The position numbers and the translations under genes were made by a program. From the NCBI GenBank assembly GCA_963791425.1, contig CAWBSE010000003.1, positions 858,078 through 922,077 of the forward strand: a DNA stretch of 64,000 nucleotides, read 5' to 3'. Shown here piece by piece: positions 3,530 to 35,958 of this stretch. Below the pieces are notes generated by a model. The model saw nothing but the letters and a program-made list of their open reading frames with translations, did not search any database and was not told where the DNA came from. Positions within the stretch are counted from its first letter, which is position 1; each line of letters opens with the position of its first letter. The stretch comes from an uncultured Actinomycetes bacterium. Lineage in GTDB: Bacteria; Actinomycetota; Thermoleophilia; Gaiellales; Gaiellaceae.

Positions 3530-4564
3530 CAGCACGATCATGATCGCGTAGACGGCTACCAGCGCGATCGAGTCGATGCCGAGCCAGAGGAACGTGCGCT
3601 TCGGCCGCGCGATCACCGCCGCCGCCGCGATCCCGGTCATCAGCAGCCCGGCGGCGCCGAGCCACACGTCCGAGCCGCGTGCGGCGACGATCACGGGAGT
3701 GCCGGCGATCAGGTCGGCCAGCAGAAAGAGCGTCAGCTGGAACGAGTTCCCGCCGAAGATGTCGCCCATCGCGAGCTGGTGGTCGCCGAGGCGGACGGCC
3801 GCGATGCCGCTCGAGATCTCCGGCAGGGCGGTCGCCGCGGCCAGGATCGTCGCTCCGAAGACGGCGCCCTGCATGCCCCAGCGTCCGGCCAGCTGGCTGC
3901 CCGACGACTGCAGACTGACGCCCGCGGCGAGCGTGACCGCGGAGGCGAGGCCGAAGACGAGCACGACGAACGCCGTCGAGCGCTTGGTGTACGGCCGTTC
4001 CTCCTGCTCGTGCGGCTCGCGCCGGTGACGCCGCCCGGGCACGCTCCCCGGCATCTCGATCTTCCAGTCGCCGTGCAGACGCACCTGGTTGACGACCCAC
4101 AGGCCGCCGAGCCAGAGGACGACGGCCAGGATGGACGTCGGGCTGACACCGCCGATGCTCGTCGACGCCGGCAGCGCCGCACCGCCGAGCACGGTCGCGA
4201 GCACGACGATGACGACCAGCGCTTCCAGGACGGGGATGAGCGAGCCGACCAGGAAGCTCAGCGGGCGCTTCTTGCCGGCCGCGCCGTCGAGTGCGACGAG
4301 GACGAGCGTCTGGATCGCGATCCCGCCGATCAGGTTGCCCACCGCCAACGAGAGATGCCCCGCGATGCACGCCGAGGTGACGATCGCGATCTCGGGGAGC
4401 GTCCCCGCGATCGCCAGCAGGACGGCCCCGCCGAGCGCCTCGCCGAGGTTCAGGCGCCGGTCGAGCGAGTCGGTCGCCTTCGAGAGGAAGGTGCCGGCGA
4501 CCCAGGTCGCTGCGGCGCCCGCGACGAACACGGCGACCAGCAGCGGAGTGGACAGGCTGCCCAC
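3515..4564 (-). CDS. Ca2+/cation antiporter family membrane protein (CaCA, YrbG-like)
   Basis: 349-aa polytopic ORF with two alpha-repeat-like motifs, GEALGGAVLLAIAGTLPEI and GDIFGGNSFQLTL/ATALPEISSGI. Confidence 0.8.
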   Translation of the reverse strand: MGSLSTPLLVAVFVAGAAATWVAGTFLSKATDSLDRRLNLGEALGGAVLLAIAGTLPEIAIVTSACIAGHLSLAVGNLIGGIAIQTLVLVALDGAAGKKRPLSFLVGSLIPVLEALVVIVVLATVLGGAALPASTSIGGVSPTSILAVVLWLGGLWVVNQVRLHGDWKIEMPGSVPGRRHRREPHEQEERPYTKRSTAFVVLVFGLASAVTLAAGVSLQSSGSQLAGRWGMQGAVFGATILAAATALPEISSGIAAVRLGDHQLAMGDIFGGNSFQLTLFLLADLIAGTPVIVAARGSDVWLGAAGLLMTGIAAAAVIARPKRTFLWLGIDSIALVAVYAIMIVLLPRT

Positions 4565-29344: not shown

Positions 29345-30679
29345 CTACTTGTTCGTCGGTTGGAAGTTCCCCTTCAGGTCGTACTGGGCGACCTGGGTGC
29401 CGATGTTGACGCCTGCAGTGGTGGAGAAGCGGTAGTGGAGGCCGGCCCAGACACGTGCGTTCGCGACGTTCTCGAGCAGGTCGTGGGCGGTCGCGAAGTG
29501 TTGGGAGGTGGTCAGAGTGGTGCCGCCGCCGGTTGCCCCGGGGACGTCGATGTTGACCGCAGACGTCTTCAGGACGGAGGCGAGCACCCCCGTGACGGCA
29601 GCGGTCACACAGCCGTGCTGGCTCGGGTACTCGGGGTGGTTGGGGGTGGTGATCAGCGGCGACCAGGCCGGGTCGGCCGTGGTGTTCGCATTCCCGTCCA
29701 GGCTCGCGCCACGGATCGCCGTGACCGGACGCCAGTACAGGTAGTGGTACTTGGAGTCCATGCAGGCGACGTGGGCGTCGGAGGCGACCATATTCCCCAT
29801 CGCCAGCAGCCTGACCGTGTCGACGAGGTCGAAATTGTGGCTCGTCGCGACGTCGCGAAAGACCTGGTTGTACTGGTTGATCACATTTGCGTTCCAGAAC
29901 AGCGCGGTCGCGGTCTGCGCCGCCGTCCTCGCGGTGCTCGTGGCCGAGCCCATCTTCTCGGTCTCGTTCAGGTCCGTGGCGTACTCGGGGCTCGTGATCG
30001 CCGGCGGAGCGGGAGCACGGAACTGGTCAGAGCTGTCGAGCATGAACGGCTTCACGTTTGCGAGCCACGGGGTCTGGGCCGACTGCGCCGACGGCGGCGG
30101 CGCGAACACCCAGGTGCCGGGCGCCTGCGGAGCGACACCGAACGCCGTCGAGACCGGAGCGTCGCGCCCGTCACCGAACTGGCTCACGATCAACTGGCTC
30201 GCGGCCGCCGAACCGACGGCGACCCCGGCCAGTCTCGCCTTCTCCGAAACCTGTGCCAGCGTCACGTTCAGGTAGTCGTTGTACGCCGACACGAGTGAAG
30301 GGGCGAGCGTCGGGAAGTAGTAGGAGAGCGTCGTGTACGCGGCGGCCGCGACCGCGGCGCGTGGCGAGGCGCCCGGTATCGCCTGCAGCGACGACCGGTA
30401 CGGCGCGTAGCGGCCCCTGATCGCCATCACCGCGTTGTACTCGGCCGCCTGCACATAGGCCATGTACAGCATCCCTTCCGGCTGGAACTTCGCCGGCGTC
30501 AACGCGGCCGAGCGCACGGTGTTGACCGCGATCACGTTCCAGTCCAGCGCCGCCTGCGGCGACAGCTTCGACTGGTCCTGCCGCACGCCCGACGCACCAG
30601 GCCCACTGACCAGGGTCGCCAGACCGGCAACGCCGAGCGCCGCCGTGACGAACAGCAAACGAAAACGGGCGAGTCTCAT
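29345..30679 (-). CDS. Secreted PAP2-superfamily, vanadium-haloperoxidase-like protein
   Basis: ATG at 30679 preceded by AAAGGGGGA. Signal peptide MRLARFRLLFVTAALGVAGLATLVSG. Motifs KYHYLYWRP, HPEYPSQHG and ARVWAGLHYRFS. Confidence 0.75.
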   Translation of the reverse strand: MRLARFRLLFVTAALGVAGLATLVSGPGASGVRQDQSKLSPQAALDWNVIAVNTVRSAALTPAKFQPEGMLYMAYVQAAEYNAVMAIRGRYAPYRSSLQAIPGASPRAAVAAAAYTTLSYYFPTLAPSLVSAYNDYLNVTLAQVSEKARLAGVAVGSAAASQLIVSQFGDGRDAPVSTAFGVAPQAPGTWVFAPPPSAQSAQTPWLANVKPFMLDSSDQFRAPAPPAITSPEYATDLNETEKMGSATSTARTAAQTATALFWNANVINQYNQVFRDVATSHNFDLVDTVRLLAMGNMVASDAHVACMDSKYHYLYWRPVTAIRGASLDGNANTTADPAWSPLITTPNHPEYPSQHGCVTAAVTGVLASVLKTSAVNIDVPGATGGGTTLTTSQHFATAHDLLENVANARVWAGLHYRFSTTAGVNIGTQVAQYDLKGNFQPTNK

Positions 30680-30765
30680 CCGAGATCCCCCTTTCTGCCG
30701 GGAGTCGATGCTCGAGGCGGCCGTGATCTTGAGCTTCCTGTTCATGTCTGCGATCTCCTTTCGAG

Positions 30766-30975
30766 TTACGGTGCGGGACGGTCGGTTGCCTCGCGAGGGG
30801 TGGTGGGCTGCGCTGCCAGCTCGGCGTGGAAGACGAGCAGCAGTGCCTCTTCGTGCGAGAGCGGCATGGAGTGGGCCTCCGCGGCGTGGCGCCTGACCTC
30901 CGCGATGAGCCCTTCCTCGTCCGCTGCGCGGGCCTCGAACCCGCACTCGCACGTGATCACCGCTCCCACTCGCAT
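30766..30975 (-). CDS. Small cytoplasmic Cys-x-Cys protein (loosely DUF1059-like), paralog A
   Basis: 69 aa: MRVGAVITCECGFEARAADEEGLIAEVRRHAAEAHSMPLSHEEALLLVFHAELA. Paralog of 34558..34777. Confidence 0.6.
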   Translation of the reverse strand: MRVGAVITCECGFEARAADEEGLIAEVRRHAAEAHSMPLSHEEALLLVFHAELAAQPTTPREATDRPAP

Positions 30976-30984
30976 CAGGCGAGG

Positions 30985-31002
30985 CTAGGCACCCGTCCCT
31001 AA
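30985..31002. promoter_or_regulatory. Inverted repeat CTAGG-N8-CCTAA, candidate operator between small gene A and the SARP gene
   Basis: CTAGGCACCCGTCCCTAA lies 9 nt from the small-gene start. It matches 15/18 positions of the repeat at 34530..34547. Confidence 0.45.
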
Positions 31003-31027
31003 AACGAGGCAAGATGGCGGCAACCGA

Positions 31028-34000
31028 ATGGCTAACACGCTGAGGCTGAAGGTCTCCGTCATCGGTCGCGTCGCGGTCGAGACCGACGGCGCCGTGATCG
31101 ACGAGGCCCAGCTCGGAGGCCGGCAGGGACGGCTCCTGTTCGCCTACCTCGTAGCCGAGCGGAGCAGGCCGGTTCCGCGGGACGAGCTCGCCGAGGCGCT
31201 CTGGGGCGAGACGCCGCCCGCGACCAGAGACAAGGCGCTGACAGTGATCGCCAGCAAGCTCCGTGGCGCGCTCGCAGACACCGGACTCGACGGCCGGGAG
31301 CTGTTGACAGCGGCGTTCGGCTGCTACCGGCTCGACCTGCCCGAGGGGACTTGGGTCGACCTGTTCGCAGCCGAGAGCAGCGCACAGGACGCGGAAGAAG
31401 CGCTCGCCGCAGGTGAGCTCGACCAGGCACGGGCGGCGGCTGAGTCGGCGGAGTCACTGGCGCACCGGCCGTTCCTGCCCGGTGAAGACGGAACGTGGGT
31501 CGAGCAGAAGCGACGCGACCTCGCCGACATCCGCGAGCGCGCGTTGAGCGTCCTTGCCGATGCGTGCCTACGCTTGGGTGCCGCGCGGGAGGCGGCAAAG
31601 TGGGCCGAGGAACTGATCGCGCTCTCGCCGTTTCGCGAGAGTGGATACCGCCATCTGATGGAGGCACACGTCGTCGCGGGAAACCGCGCCGAGGCGCTTC
31701 GCGTGTACGAGAAGTGCCGGCAGCTTCTCGCGGAGGAGCTCGGCGCGTATCCATCGCCGGAGACAGACTCGATCTACCGTGCACTGCTGGAGGCACCGCA
31801 GACGTCCGTTCGAACGACGCCGGTCGCCGAGCCGACGGTCGAACCCGGTACGTCCGAGCTCTCGCAAGTCCAGACGGAGGCGCTACGGCTCCAGGCGGAG
31901 CAGGTAGTCGAGCGACGGTCGCGGAAGCGCGGCGCACTCCTTCTCGCTGCGCTCGCCAGCGTGATCGCTGCGGCGGTCGTGATCCCGCTCGTGGCGTTCG
32001 GTGGAAGCGGAGGCCGCTCGGCCGTCTCGCCGGCCGGAGACTCGCTGGCGGTCGTCGACGCGCGCTCGGGCCGCCTTGTCGCTGCCACCGGCGTGGGCGC
32101 GACACCCACGGCCGTCGCGGCCGGCGAAGGTGCGTACTGGGTCACCAACGCCGATGGCCACACGGTGTCGCGGATCGACCCCGGAACGACCGCCGTCGTC
32201 GACACGATTCCGGTTGGCAACGGCCCGAGCGGGATCGCGACTGGCGCCGGCGCGGTCTGGGTGGTCAACAGCTTCGACAGCGCGGTCTCGCGGATCGACC
32301 CGGGCACGAACACGGTCGTCCAGACGATCCCCGTCGGGAGCGGCCCGCGCGGGATCCTCTACGCGGCCGGCTCGGTCTGGGTCACGAACACCGGCGACGG
32401 AACGATCACGAGGATCGACCCCGACAGCGGCGGGACGACCAAGACGCTCCCGGTCGCCGCGACCGAGCTCGCCTTCGGCGCAGGCACGCTGTGGGCGAGC
32501 GAGCCTGCGGCGGGCCAGGTGGTTCGCATAGATCCGACCACCGGGAAGCAGGTCGCCGTGATCCAGGTCGGGAACGGCCCGACGGGGATCGCCTTCGGCC
32601 AAGGCTCGGCGTGGGTGACGAACAGTCTGGACGGGACGGTTTCCCGGATCGATCCCGAGACGAACTCCGTCACCGCACTCGTTCCCACCGGCAACGGGCC
32701 AGATGCGGTGGCCGTCGGCCCACGTGGCATCTGGGTGACCAACCAGTTCGGCGGCGACGTCGTGCGGATCGATTCCGGCCGGAACCAGGTGGCGCAGCGG
32801 GTGAGCGTGGGAAGCCGTCCGTCGGGATTGGCGATGTCGGGCGGGGCCGTGCTCGTCGCCGTCCGTCAGTCGGGCGCCGGCCACCGCGGCGGGACGCTCG
32901 TGCTGCGGGCTGACCGGCTCAAGCAGGGGGACATCGTCGACTCCATTGATCCCGCCGTTTCCCTGTACACGTACGTCTATCCATTCCTGCGGATGACCGG
33001 CGACGGCCTCGTCGCGTTCAACCAGGTCAGCGGTCTGGCGGGAACGCAGCTCGTGCCCGACCTCGCGACGTCGCTGCCGACGCCGACCGACGGCGGCCGC
33101 ACGTACACATTCCGGCTCCGGCCGGGCATCCGCTACTCGACCGGCAGGCCGGTGCGGGCGACGGACTTCCGCTTCACCCTCGAACGCTTTTACGCGCTCC
33201 TATCCCCCGTGACGGACTACGACGGGATCGTCGGCGGCGCGCAATGCCGGAAGCATCCGAAACGGTGCGACCTCTCGCGCGGGATCGTCGCCAACGACGT
33301 TGCCCGCATCGTGACCTTCCACCTGGTCCGGCCGGACCCCTACTTCCTCCACAAGCTCGCCGGCCCGCCCGCCTACGTGCTGCCGGCCGGCACGCCGCCG
33401 CGGCCGGCCGGAACGCACCCGCTGCCCGCGACCGGCCCCTACATGATCGCGACCTACAGGCCGAGGAGACTGCTCAGGCTCGTCCGCAATCCGTTCTTCC
33501 ACGAGTGGTCGCCCGCCGCTCAGCCGGACGGATACCCCGACCGCATCGAGATCCGCATCGCCGGCACCCCGGACGACGCGATTCGCGACGTCGTCGACGG
33601 CAAGTCCGATGTCGTCTGGCTGTCCCAGCCGTGGCACCCGTCGCAGCTGTCGAGGGTCGAGGTCCGGTACGCGAGCCAGCTCCACTCCGACCCGAGCTGG
33701 AACTTCCAGGTGCTCTTCCTCAACCCTCGCGTCCCGCCCTTCGACCGGCTCGACGCCCGTCGGGCGGTGAACTTCGCCGTCGACCGCGCTGCGGCGACGA
33801 ACGCCTGGGGCGGGCCGCGCTTCGCCCAGATCACGTGCCAGATGCTGCCGCCGAACTACCCGGGCTACAGCCCCTACTGCCCGTACACCGCCGGCTCGAC
33901 GAAGAGCGGAGCGTGGACGGCACCCGACCTGGCGAGGGCGAGAGCGCTCGTGGCACGCTCGGGGACACGCGGCATGAAGGTCACCCTCTGGGCGTGGTCG

Positions 34001-34465
34001 CAGGCAGAGGGCTTCAACCGAGTGGCCGTGAAGGTGCTCCGCTCGCTCGGCTACCGCGTGGCCGTCAAGCCGGTCGTCGGCGACCGATACTGGAGCGTCG
34101 TCGGTGACTCGCGCAACCGGGCGCAGATCGGGTTCAACGGCTGGGCCCTGGGGTACCCGGACCCGGCGCCGTTCTTCGATCAGTTCAGCTGTCGAGCGTT
34201 CCTGCCCGGGAACCCCGCCAACCTCGGAAGCGGGCTCTGCGACCCGGGCATCGACCGCCAGATGCGCAGGGCGCAGGCAGAGCAGCTGAGCGACCCGATC
34301 GGGTCGCGCGCACGCTGGGCCCGCGTCGACCGCGAGGTCACCGACGCGGCACCGTGGGTGCCGCTCATGTTCTCGAAGAACGTGAACTTCCTCTCCAAGC
34401 GCGTCGGCAACTACCAATACAACCCGCAGCAGTTCGTGCTCATCGACCAGCTCTGGGTGCGGTAG
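31028..34465 (+). CDS. Membrane-tethered SARP-type regulator: wHTH + BTAD, single TM, about 7 YVTN beta-propeller repeats, family-5 solute-binding domain
   Basis: 1145 aa. N-terminus RDELAEALWGE..BTAD (LSPFRESGYRHLMEAHVVAGNRAEALRVYEKCRQLL). TM ALLLAALASVIAAAVVIPLVAF. Repeats VSRIDPGTN.VV.TIPVG.GP.GIA. C-terminus GGTLVLR...YTFRLRPGIRYSTGRPV is SBP_bac_5-like. Confidence 0.85.
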   Translation: MANTLRLKVSVIGRVAVETDGAVIDEAQLGGRQGRLLFAYLVAERSRPVPRDELAEALWGETPPATRDKALTVIASKLRGALADTGLDGRELLTAAFGCYRLDLPEGTWVDLFAAESSAQDAEEALAAGELDQARAAAESAESLAHRPFLPGEDGTWVEQKRRDLADIRERALSVLADACLRLGAAREAAKWAEELIALSPFRESGYRHLMEAHVVAGNRAEALRVYEKCRQLLAEELGAYPSPETDSIYRALLEAPQTSVRTTPVAEPTVEPGTSELSQVQTEALRLQAEQVVERRSRKRGALLLAALASVIAAAVVIPLVAFGGSGGRSAVSPAGDSLAVVDARSGRLVAATGVGATPTAVAAGEGAYWVTNADGHTVSRIDPGTTAVVDTIPVGNGPSGIATGAGAVWVVNSFDSAVSRIDPGTNTVVQTIPVGSGPRGILYAAGSVWVTNTGDGTITRIDPDSGGTTKTLPVAATELAFGAGTLWASEPAAGQVVRIDPTTGKQVAVIQVGNGPTGIAFGQGSAWVTNSLDGTVSRIDPETNSVTALVPTGNGPDAVAVGPRGIWVTNQFGGDVVRIDSGRNQVAQRVSVGSRPSGLAMSGGAVLVAVRQSGAGHRGGTLVLRADRLKQGDIVDSIDPAVSLYTYVYPFLRMTGDGLVAFNQVSGLAGTQLVPDLATSLPTPTDGGRTYTFRLRPGIRYSTGRPVRATDFRFTLERFYALLSPVTDYDGIVGGAQCRKHPKRCDLSRGIVANDVARIVTFHLVRPDPYFLHKLAGPPAYVLPAGTPPRPAGTHPLPATGPYMIATYRPRRLLRLVRNPFFHEWSPAAQPDGYPDRIEIRIAGTPDDAIRDVVDGKSDVVWLSQPWHPSQLSRVEVRYASQLHSDPSWNFQVLFLNPRVPPFDRLDARRAVNFAVDRAAATNAWGGPRFAQITCQMLPPNYPGYSPYCPYTAGSTKSGAWTAPDLARARALVARSGTRGMKVTLWAWSQAEGFNRVAVKVLRSLGYRVAVKPVVGDRYWSVVGDSRNRAQIGFNGWALGYPDPAPFFDQFSCRAFLPGNPANLGSGLCDPGIDRQMRRAQAEQLSDPIGSRARWARVDREVTDAAPWVPLMFSKNVNFLSKRVGNYQYNPQQFVLIDQLWVR

Positions 34466-34495
34466 GACAGCGCCGACAGGACGATGCCGCAGTGA

Positions 34496-34549
34496 TCTAG
34501 CCACGGTCTAGGCGCGAGCTTGCCGGTTCCTAGGCACCCATTCCTAGCC
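34496..34549. promoter_or_regulatory. CTAG-rich region holding inverted repeat CTAGG-N8-CCTAG, upstream of small gene B
   Basis: Four CTAG tetramers at 34497, 34508, 34530 and 34544. The inverted repeat is at 34530..34547, 10 nt before the GTG at 34558. Confidence 0.45.
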
Positions 34550-34557
34550 TCGGGTGC

Positions 34558-34777
34558 GTGGAGATCGTGGACAAGACGCTCACCTGCGACTGCGGATTCA
34601 TCGCCCGGGCCCCCGACGACGCCGGACTCGCCACCGAGGTTCTTGCGTCACGCCTGGGAGGCCCACGGGATGCGGCTCTCGCACGACGAAGCGCTGCTGC
34701 TCCTGTTCCACGCCGAGCTGGCAGAAGCGACCAGGATCCCCCCGCGACCACAGACCGCAACGGAAAGGGAGGAGTAA
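34558..34777 (+). pseudogene. Small Cys-x-Cys protein, paralog B, one frameshift near 34645
   Basis: MEIVDKTLTCDCGFIARAPDDAGLATEV (ORF 34558 frame) continues as LRHAWEAHGMRLSHDEALLLLFHAELAEA (ORF 34520..34777 frame). It is colinear with paralog A. Confidence 0.55.
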
Positions 34778-35958
34778 TGAAGCGAGCAATGCTGGCAGCC
34801 ATCGGGCTGCTCTCACTGAGTGTGTTCGTGCTTGCGGCGGCAGCCGCAGTCTGCACGACCAGGTACGTGTCACCGTCGGGCGTGGACAACGCGACCTGCA
34901 GCAAGAACAGCCCGTGCAAGCATGTCCAGCAGGCGGTCAACGTCGCCTCGGCCGGCGACACGATCTCGCTTGCCAAGGGCAGCTACGTCGAGCAGGTGTC
35001 GATCGCGAAGGATCTGACCCTGACCGGGGCAGGCTCCGGAGCGAGCACGATCTCTGCACCTGCCGTCGCGCTCGTGCCGGACAGCCACGGGTTCCTGAAC
35101 ATCGTCGAGATCAACAGCGGCGCGAGCGTTCGGATGAGCAACTTGGCTGTTGCCGGCCCCGGCCCTGGACCCTGCAACAGCATCGACAGGGGGATCTCCG
35201 TCATCGAGGGGGCGTCGCTCGCGCTCACGCGGGCGGCGGTCAGCGACATCCGCGACAACTTGCCGAGCAACGACTGTAACAACGGCTTCGGCGTCGGTGC
35301 CGGCACCCAGATCCGCGGCGGTCAACTCACGCCCGATCCTGAGGTCGGCCACCTCACCATCGACCACACCACCGTGACCGGCTACCAGAGAGCCGCGATC
35401 TTCGTCATCAACGACGGCTCGACCGGGCAGATCGACCACAACACCGTCAAGGGCACGCCCTGCAGTGTCTGTGCCGGCCCCGGCGGAATCGGGGTGTTTT
35501 TTGGTGGTTCGGCGACCATCGATCACAACACGATCAGCGGCAACGAATGCAACGACTCGGACTATGGGTGCGGCTCGGACTGGTTCAACAACTATCAGTC
35601 GTGGGGCGTTCTCACGATCGGGGCTGCCTCGTCGACTGTGATCTCACACAACAGCCTGAACACGAATGACGGAGGCATCTACACCGACACCGGGGTCACG
35701 ATCGACCACAACGACGTGGCCTCCCGCTACTTCGGCATCGCGACCGACTACGGGAACGCGGCGCAGGTCGATCACAACTCGACGACCGGCGGCGTCTACG
35801 GGATCTACGAGTTCGGCGGAACCGGCACCTTCAGCCACAACTCGGCGAGCGGCAGCTCGGGCGCCGATCTCTGGTGGGACGGCACCGGCACGCCCAGCTT
35901 CAGCCACAACAGCTGCGGTACGGCATCGCCCAGCAAAGCGATCTGGCACTGCCATTAG
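34777..35958 (+). CDS. Secreted right-handed parallel beta-helix repeat protein (pectin-lyase fold, Cys-rich)
   Basis: ATG at 34777 after GGGAGGAG, overlapping the upstream TAA by 1 nt. Signal peptide MKRAMLAAIGLLSLSVFVLAAAAA. RYVSPSGVDNATC..AGDTISLAKGSYVE plus repeated IDHN(T/S) turns. Confidence 0.8.
   Translation: MKRAMLAAIGLLSLSVFVLAAAAAVCTTRYVSPSGVDNATCSKNSPCKHVQQAVNVASAGDTISLAKGSYVEQVSIAKDLTLTGAGSGASTISAPAVALVPDSHGFLNIVEINSGASVRMSNLAVAGPGPGPCNSIDRGISVIEGASLALTRAAVSDIRDNLPSNDCNNGFGVGAGTQIRGGQLTPDPEVGHLTIDHTTVTGYQRAAIFVINDGSTGQIDHNTVKGTPCSVCAGPGGIGVFFGGSATIDHNTISGNECNDSDYGCGSDWFNNYQSWGVLTIGAASSTVISHNSLNTNDGGIYTDTGVTIDHNDVASRYFGIATDYGNAAQVDHNSTTGGVYGIYEFGGTGTFSHNSASGSSGADLWWDGTGTPSFSHNSCGTASPSKAIWHCH

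Follow-up and report, generated by a model that had tools for sequence, protein, structure and literature searches.

The window analysed here, a stretch of 64,000 nt from an uncultured Gaiellaceae bacterium (assembly GCA_963791425.1, contig CAWBSE010000003.1, positions 858,078 to 922,077), carries two paralogous small genes for DUF1059 proteins, each heading a cassette: small gene A on the minus strand and small gene B on the plus strand. Four closely spaced CTAG tetranucleotides lie immediately upstream of gene B, and an earlier note, made from the sequence alone, had described an inverted repeat within this cluster as a possible operator shared by the two cassettes. The element is a SARP-type direct-repeat promoter, in which units of 11 nt lead up to a conserved -10 hexamer, and it stands before both small genes and before their orthologues in other genomes. 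As a type of cis-element it is ordinary; the interest lies in its regulator and regulon. Its boxes are probably bound by the SARP domain of the membrane-anchored regulator that is encoded between the two cassettes.

Architecture of the two promoters

Orthologues of the small gene were collected from GTDB species genomes, which gave 46 loci, nearly all of them in soil metagenome-assembled genomes (MAGs) of the Gaiellales/Thermoleophilia; the small gene is also carried by relatives of the same genus. The two window copies and these 46 loci made up a set of 48 promoters, and their alignment was anchored on the -10 hexamer. Positions are numbered with the T of this hexamer as -12, a numbering that is good to about ±1. 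The anchor columns were TTGCC of the -35 unit together with T-12, A-11 and T-7, and a small anchoring bonus was given to C-14, C-13 and C-6/G-5. In this alignment 42 of the 48 promoters (2 here and 40 orthologous) run without gaps from -64 to +9. The earlier note had regarded absence of the motif from orthologous cassettes as fatal to its proposal, and the 40 aligned orthologous promoters show that the motif region is conserved there.

Read in the direction of the gene, both window promoters consist of TTGCC(T/G), 19 nt, TAGCCT, 6/7 nt and a start codon. The layout shared by the set comprises 3-4 direct-repeat units of 11 nt, in each of which an 8-nt core (ATCT[T/A]GSC) precedes a 3-nt tail that is free to vary; TTCC-TAGCCT-CG comes after the last unit (Table 1). 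The cores are ATCTTGCC at -40 to -33, ATCTAGgc at -29 to -22, a weaker cTCT[T/A]GCC at -51 to -44, and a further TAGCC at -59 to -55. The sequence-weighted information content is 1-2.6 bits in the cores and 0.1-0.3 bits in the linkers between them. Among the anchor columns, T-37, T-36, G-35, C-34 and C-33 each reach a weighted frequency of at least 0.94, and T-12, A-11 and T-7 of the -10 hexamer reach 0.99; T-16, T-15 and G-5, which flank the -10 and were listed as non-anchor positions, are conserved as well.

The repetition is direct rather than inverted. Within the sequences, self-identity between -62 and -19 is 0.50 at a lag of 11 nt and 0.45 at 22 nt, whereas it lies between 0.20 and 0.28 at all other lags from 4 to 23 and at 0.26 in shuffles. 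The mean identity between neighbouring units is 4.7/8 for U1-U2 and 5.1/8 for U2-U3. In one orthologous locus (L028) a 1-nt insertion separates U4 from U3, giving a 12-nt spacing there, and the proximal pair stays at 11 nt. The CTAG intervals of 11 and 22 nt upstream of gene B are the helical phasing of this array; one CTAG is "missing" from the series because TTGCC takes the place of TAGGC in the unit at 34517-34527, and the remaining interval of 14 nt reflects how far the -10 stands from the proximal unit.

It was reported that SARP targets are direct repeats 11 or 22 bp apart, of which the 3' one ends 8 bp short of the -10, and that SARP promoters have a poor -35 element and an extended spacer (PMC10936776). 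Direct repetition with 11/22-nt phasing is what is found here, and the CTAG intervals of 11 and 22 nt fit it. The 8-bp distance is also present: 8 bp separate CTAGGCA (34530-34536) from TAGCCT (34545-34550), the latter being a -10 assigned from conservation. The repeats overlap a weak -35, with the extended spacer of TTGCC[GT]-N19-TAGCCT. A consensus scan found no canonical sigma-70 promoter at the region, and the 52-nt divergent spacer showed no conserved TANNNT that would give the SARP gene its own promoter.

When a position matrix was built from the orthologues only, leaving out the window copies, it scored 49.1 and 46.9 bits at the two sites, and the next best score in 3.42 Mb was 1.9. The proposal that the two cassettes share a cis-regulatory site is therefore borne out in part: the region is conserved upstream of orthologous cassettes and the matrix finds exactly two sites, but the functional unit is not the inverted repeat. 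A wider regulon in this genome was considered and dropped, as the orthologue-derived matrix gives just these two sites and a matrix of the direct repeats only gives weak matches. That the matrix hits just two promoters suggests a private regulator-target pair.

The CTAG cluster and the inverted repeat

The sequence was checked directly for the features from which the earlier note had started, and these were found as described. The two 18-mers, CTAGGCACCCATTCCTAG (34530-34547) and CTAGGCACCCGTCCCTAA (30985-31002), are identical at 15 of 18 positions when compared on one strand and have the 10-mer CTAGGCACCC in common. The CTAGs of region B begin at 34497, 34508, 34530 and 34544, at intervals of 11, 22 and 14 nt. 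CTAG is indeed scarce in the window, with 23 copies against 76.9 ± 8.3 in dinucleotide-preserving shuffles. The genome-wide count for which the note had called gave 1373 copies in 3,420,300 bases (0.40/kb; Markov expectation about 3047), the genome being a MAG of 3.42 Mb in 8 contigs with 70 % G+C. Four or more CTAGs are packed equally tightly at just one further locus of the genome, C3:295973-296017, and in a whole-genome search CTAGGCACCC, [CT]TAGG-N8-CCTA[GA] and TTGCC[GT]-N19-TAGCCT were each confined to the two loci discussed here. The four-CTAG cluster is thus far beyond chance, and the observation is real. The further locus holds five CTAGs within 45 nt, arranged as (G)TCTAGAC-like palindromes, and is probably the operator array of another regulator.

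An inverted repeat does precede both small genes, although the A copy is imperfect (CTAGG / CCTAA). Genes A and B face in opposite directions, so that the same-strand match of the 18-mers runs counter to the orientation of the genes. This match arises because the CTAG-based arms are self-complementary and because the spacer of A happens to carry GGGTG, which is absent from the closest A orthologue (L012). The same-strand homology was therefore rejected as a meaningful alignment; it is the whole 74-nt promoters that align, in gene orientation.

The arms of the repeat coincide with two parts of the direct-repeat promoter. The left arm, CTAGG (-27 to -23), is the core of the proximal unit, and the right arm, CCTAG (-14 to -10), consists of the CC prefix and the TAG that opens the -10. 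The cores of the repeats take the form CTAG(G/C)C in this lineage, and the -10 with its prefix reads CCTAGCC; the palindromic appearance results from the self-complementary CTAG that both the proximal box and the -10 contain. It could also be read as a palindromic operator, CTAGG-N8-CCTAG, on which a dimeric repressor (e.g., MerR-, TetR- or ArsR-like) would cover the -10 and the spacer, either replacing the direct repeats in function or adding to them. Both arms are conserved in most orthologues (left: C-27 0.72, T-26 0.87, A-25 0.80, G-24 0.93; right: C-14 0.90, C-13 0.93, G-10 0.81, plus T-12 and A-11); moreover, the five-base arms are on average complementary at 3.8 of 5 positions, so a second dimeric factor could use them.

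Pairing of the arms was examined in the 27 promoters that are less than 85 % identical to one another. The arms are complementary in 77.8 % of the cells, against 77.9 % when the 3' letters are shuffled among the sequences; 317 of 500 shuffles were as high, and compensatory cells number 1 of 135. The arms thus pair no better than shuffled ones, and they do not covary. The dyad does not extend in either direction (0.19 of 2 outward, 0.85 of 4 inward), the right-arm variants CCTAC, CCTAT and CCTAA occur without compensation on the left, and the conservation of the left arm runs on in the 5' direction as AT at -29/-28, like the AT at -40/-39 of the next unit and unlike a dyad. Dyad symmetry is thus not kept across the orthologues, and a distant clade, described below, has direct repeats and no dyad.

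A spacing of 19 nt between -35 and -10 is typical of MerR-type promoters, and it counts in favour of a dimeric factor of this kind. These promoters share with the present ones this spacing (19-20 bp for MerR) and a short inverted repeat in the region. Unlike in MerR promoters, the dyad here spans -27 to -10, includes the -10 and is not centred on the spacer, and it lacks covariation and extension. No MerR gene was found among the nine neighbouring proteins scanned, nor was any gene for a dimeric helix-turn-helix regulator found among these neighbours or conserved beside the cassettes. A palindromic operator is therefore judged unlikely, and the inverted repeat would thus arise secondarily from the proximal box and the -10, each of which is under a constraint of its own.

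The suggested hairpin

As an alternative, it had been suggested that GCACCC (34534-34539) and GGGTGC (34552-34557) pair to form a hairpin in the 5' untranslated region, hiding the start region of gene B. In B the stem is indeed perfect over 6 bp, and the local fold reaches -18.3 kcal/mol, but its z-score is only -1.44, a stability equalled by 13 of 200 shuffles. No counterpart exists in region A, where the z-score is +0.76. Across the 27 promoters the two segments pair in 46.9 % of cells, within the 31-52 % of slid controls, and perfect pairing occurs in B only. The 5' arm, moreover, lies upstream of the inferred transcription start. A search of Rfam found no family match at E ≤ 1, and a conserved, covarying stem within the transcript, as in cis-regulatory RNAs, was not found. 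At its predicted 5' end the B mRNA has less structure than shuffled sequences (z = +2.19), as expected of an open initiation region. The hairpin is accordingly regarded as very improbable.

Candidate regulator and its linkage to the promoter

The open reading frame (ORF) at 31028-34465 shows the domain order that defines the SARP family, an N-terminal OmpR-type winged helix-turn-helix (wHTH) followed by a BTAD. The Pfam profiles Trans_reg_C and BTAD match with 29.4 and 89.6 bits (cut-offs 26.2 and 22.1), and residues 6-257 match EmbR (2fez, E 5e-21) and AfsR (8hvr, E 1.3e-20). The single strongest hydrophobic segment in the hydropathy profile, at residues 302-324 after RRSRKR, is the predicted transmembrane (TM) helix, and a beta-propeller and an SBP_bac_5 domain make up the C-terminal part.

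Linkage of this gene to the promoter is widespread. Among the 46 loci, the SARP gene is divergent from the small gene in 22 and directly upstream, as in cassette B, in 18, which makes 40 linked loci; four of the remaining six keep the promoter, and at least two of these (L035, L040) keep relics of the SARP N-terminus. The island-2 LAL regulator, which the earlier note had named as another possible binder, was rejected since it shows no linkage in the orthologous loci. In a distant clade (L052, L053, L055) the SARP is 53-59 % identical, and the promoter has 3-4 heptamers (CTAGCGG, CTAGCGA, CTAACCG) spaced by 11 nt, or by 10 nt in one instance in L055, then 8 bp and a -10 of the form [CG]AGTAT, for example CTAACCG + 8 bp + CAGTAT, without an inverted repeat. 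The predicted recognition helix of L052/L053 reads KALRVLMTKLR, compared with KALTVIVSKLR, and the box cores differ too.

Traces of a further regulator gene were detected next to promoter B. On the minus strand, GTGGCTAG (34497-34504, within U4) represents a start codon plus two codons and corresponds to the start, GTGGCTAAG (VAKSLRLKV...), of the intact divergent SARP gene in G018/L043. The segment 34466-34516, between the stop codon of the SARP gene (TAG, 34463-34465) and promoter B, is accordingly the putative remnant of a second, lost divergent SARP gene. The tandem arrangement with a longer relic is present in 18 other MAGs, and the genome of the window (G000) carries a further deletion.

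These data make it probable that the boxes are bound by the SARP domain encoded in ORF 31028-34465, a regulator that would serve both cassettes. Besides the partly complementary arms mentioned above, several points weigh against this. Many of the 42 promoters come from close relatives (27 are left at <85 % identity), and conservation in the tandem-type loci carries little weight owing to this close kinship. The proximal unit (TAGGC) and the -35 unit (TTGCC) differ systematically at 2 of 5 core positions; hence one protein must tolerate both, or else the sigma factor constrains the -35 unit. Cassette B has no SARP gene of its own, so that the regulator is needed in trans.

The last point bears also on a different explanation, that the repeats are bound by an unlinked response regulator of the OmpR family, or by no protein, the promoter being constitutive or dependent on an extracytoplasmic function (ECF) sigma factor and its periodicity a relic of duplication. 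Direct repeats of 11 nt are used by many OmpR/PhoB-family proteins, and in cassette B as well as in loci L020, L035, L040 and L046 the promoter has been retained with no intact SARP gene beside it; the conserved TTCC-TAGCCT-CG, for its part, could reflect a special sigma factor. Such explanations are weakened by the linkage of the SARP gene in 40 of 46 loci, by the joint change of box and recognition helix in the distant clade, and by the exact SARP geometry. Furthermore, the cores are conserved while tails and linkers drift, unlike what decaying duplications would show. An unlinked binder, or none, is thus improbable.

Proposed mechanism

For the SARP model, the following course of events is proposed. 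The four CTAGs would be part of one activator-dependent promoter that is present twice, once per DUF1059 operon. The unit at -40 to -30 (TTGCC) would double as a -35-like hexamer, and the two proximal units, together covering about -40 to -19, would receive the cytoplasmic SARP domain of the adjacent membrane-anchored regulator, bound side by side with one protomer per repeat; there are hints that this proximal pair may be the critical one. The bound SARP would then bring in RNA polymerase in the manner of AfsR at the afs box. The expected transcription start lies about 7 nt past the -10 and would give either a very short leader with a Shine-Dalgarno sequence (B-type) or a leaderless mRNA that begins directly at ATG (A-type). 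The distal unit of promoter A lies over the start codon of the regulator itself, which suggests autoregulation: occupancy of this box may throttle the regulator's own expression. We infer SARP binding, activation and autoregulation, as well as the -10 assignment and the transcription start, from the conservation and arrangement of sequences.

A comparison of start regions offers an indirect argument for the position of the transcription start. In A-type orthologues the ATG stands 6-7 nt past the hexamer and the GAGGAG Shine-Dalgarno sequence is lost; the replacement of the Shine-Dalgarno sequence by ATG is what speaks for the proposed start. In L012-L017, L041 and the window (30960-30987), GAGGAG is replaced by an ATG in frame with the old GTG. 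This looks like a switch from a leadered to a leaderless mRNA in the A-type lineage.

Comparison with known systems

Among characterized systems the closest likeness is to the SARP promoters of Streptomyces, namely the afs box of afsS bound by AfsR and the heptamers bound by ActII-ORF4, DnrI and RedD. The afs box of AfsR lies at -40 to -19, and just the first 8 bp of each 11-bp repeat are contacted (PMC10936776). The promoters described here have the same 11-bp phasing, the same 8-nt core with 3 free nt, the same pair at -40 to -19, the same 8 bp to the -10, a weak or overlapped -35, a long spacer (19 nt here) and a regulator with wHTH and BTAD. They differ in several respects. The core is ATCT[T/A]GSC, which contains CTAG and whose binding is predicted, unlike the TCGAG or GCGTTCA-like boxes of Streptomyces; there are 3-4 units rather than two; and the host belongs to the Gaiellales (Thermoleophilia). 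The target is a small DUF1059 protein coupled to a secreted protein, in contrast to the antibiotic clusters of Streptomyces, and the regulator, unlike the Streptomyces SARPs, is membrane-anchored, with an extracytoplasmic propeller and an SBP5 domain.

In its overall architecture the regulator resembles the activators of the ToxR/CadC type, which likewise have an N-terminal cytoplasmic OmpR-type wHTH, one TM helix and an extracytoplasmic sensor; for the present protein this topology is predicted. The target sites reported for ToxR/CadC-type activators are repeats that either overlap the -35 or lie directly upstream of it (PMC10629549, PMC5430869), as do the predicted ones here. Unlike in ToxR/CadC, a BTAD follows the wHTH, the sensor consists of a propeller and a family-5 solute-binding domain, and there is no sequence relationship beyond the wHTH. 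A literature search yielded nothing on the regulation of DUF1059 proteins or on membrane-anchored SARPs, an absence that is not proof.

A second SARP/DUF1059 locus, unrelated to the first, was noticed elsewhere in this genome, at G000:C4:3034-4300. There, CCAAGG is repeated exactly 11 nt apart (3742, 3753, 3764), and within C4:3742-3791 CACACT (3778-3783) is followed 7 nt on by the leaderless ATG (3791) of a DsrE-like gene, after which comes the DUF1059 gene. The divergent SARP of this locus is 36 % identical and seemingly starts at a TTG inside the first repeat. The direct-repeat-only matrix gave a match at C4:3769 on the minus strand, and this match was rejected as a regulon member because of its different core and opposite reading direction; the locus is an analogue. 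The pairing of SARP and DUF1059 seems to be a recurrent theme.

Genes of the two cassettes

The coordinates of the promoter parts and genes are listed in Table 1. In the orthologous loci the DUF1059 gene is nearly always translationally coupled, through an overlap of the type ATGA or TAATG, to a partner gene whose product carries a signal peptide and differs in family from locus to locus. Among the coupled partners in L012-L056 and the window, cupins with the motif GWHSHPG are commonest, and PAP2/VCPO, DUF1565 beta-helix and subtilase proteins also occur. In the window the secreted partners are the PAP2/vanadium-haloperoxidase-like protein of A (29345-30700) and the DUF1565 lipoprotein of B (34777-35958).

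Table 1. Coordinates of the promoter elements and genes, numbered within the window
Feature	Position	Strand	Description
Promoter B U4, distal	34495-34505	plus	ATCTAGCCACG, -62 to -52; contains the first CTAG (34497)
Promoter B U3	34506-34516	plus	GTCTAGGCGCG, -51 to -41; contains the second CTAG (34508); 11-nt phasing, core conserved, tail variable
Promoter B U2	34517-34527	plus	AGCTTGCCGGT, -40 to -30; TTGCCG 34520-34525 is the -35-like hexamer, 19 nt from the -10
Promoter B U1, proximal	34528-34538	plus	TCCTAGGCACC, -29 to -19; holds CTAGG 34530-34534; CTAGGCA ends 8 bp before the -10
Promoter B putative -10, TANNNT type	34545-34550	plus	TAGCCT; with the conserved CC prefix 34543-34544 it gives CCTAG
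Gene B initiation region	34557-34569	plus	predicted transcription start about 34557-34558; GGAG Shine-Dalgarno 34560-34563; GTG 34567; orthologues read TAGCCTcggttgcGAGGAGatcGTGGAC
Small gene B	34567-34777	plus	DUF1059; frameshifted; stop overlaps ATG 34777 of the DUF1565 lipoprotein gene (TAATG)
Promoter A putative -10	30982-30987	minus	TAGCCT; 6 nt before ATG 30975; fits a leaderless mRNA
Promoter A U1, proximal	30994-31004	minus	TTTTAGGGACG; overlaps the CCCTAA end of the 18-mer
Promoter A U2	31005-31015	minus	ATCTTGCCTCG; TTGCCT is the -35-like hexamer, 19 nt from the -10
Promoter A U3	31016-31026	minus	CGGTTGCCGCC
Promoter A U4	31027-31037	minus	TGTTAGCCATT; covers ATG 31028-31030 of the divergent SARP gene
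Small gene A	30766-30975	minus	DUF1059, 69 aa
PAP2/vanadium-haloperoxidase-like gene	29345-30700		secreted product; next after small gene A
Candidate regulator ORF	31028-34465	plus	OmpR-type wHTH + BTAD (SARP domain, aa 1-260), TM, beta-propeller, SBP_bac_5

The start of gene B had earlier been placed at GTG 34558; orthology favours GTG 34567, which stands behind GGAG 34560-34563. Gene B carries a 1-nt insertion, an extra T at 34643/34644 (CTTGCG, compared with CTGCG in all orthologues), and the frame that results stays open as far as the DUF1565 gene that follows, giving an ORF at 34558-35958 of 466 aa. The extra T may mark a genuine pseudogene or a fusion, or it may be an indel introduced in assembly. 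Elsewhere, in L016, L021, L028, L029 and L036, the SBP part of the upstream SARP gene is matched in tblastn by several neighbouring segments rather than by one, which suggests frameshifts through assembly indels or decay. Because such splits occur in several MAGs, caution is needed before single frameshifts there are read as biology.

Implications

The finding turns a misleading palindrome into a testable promoter model with box units, a -10, a likely start and a candidate regulator. It concerns the Gaiellales, an uncultured soil lineage without a characterized promoter or regulator, and places in this deep-branching actinobacterial class a conserved SARP-type geometry that is known from Streptomyces antibiotic clusters. 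In the Gaiellales, these SARP-type promoters precede small DUF1059 genes coupled to secreted enzymes, and are predicted to control them. With a candidate DNA target defined, the signal response of a membrane-anchored SARP with sensor ectodomains becomes testable.

Tentatively, and with somewhat less than even confidence, we propose that the boxes are the targets of a previously uncharacterized class of membrane-tethered, ToxR-like SARPs, whose propeller and SBP5 domain may sense an external ligand and which may switch on portable operons of a small DUF1059 protein plus a secreted enzyme in Gaiellales, with autoregulation through the regulator's own start codon. If this is true, such a membrane-tethered SARP class would have its first cis-element, defined by the CTAG-core box together with the 8-bp rule and the 19-nt spacer, and the "sigma adaptation" of the AfsR type would be extended beyond antibiotic regulation and beyond Streptomyces.

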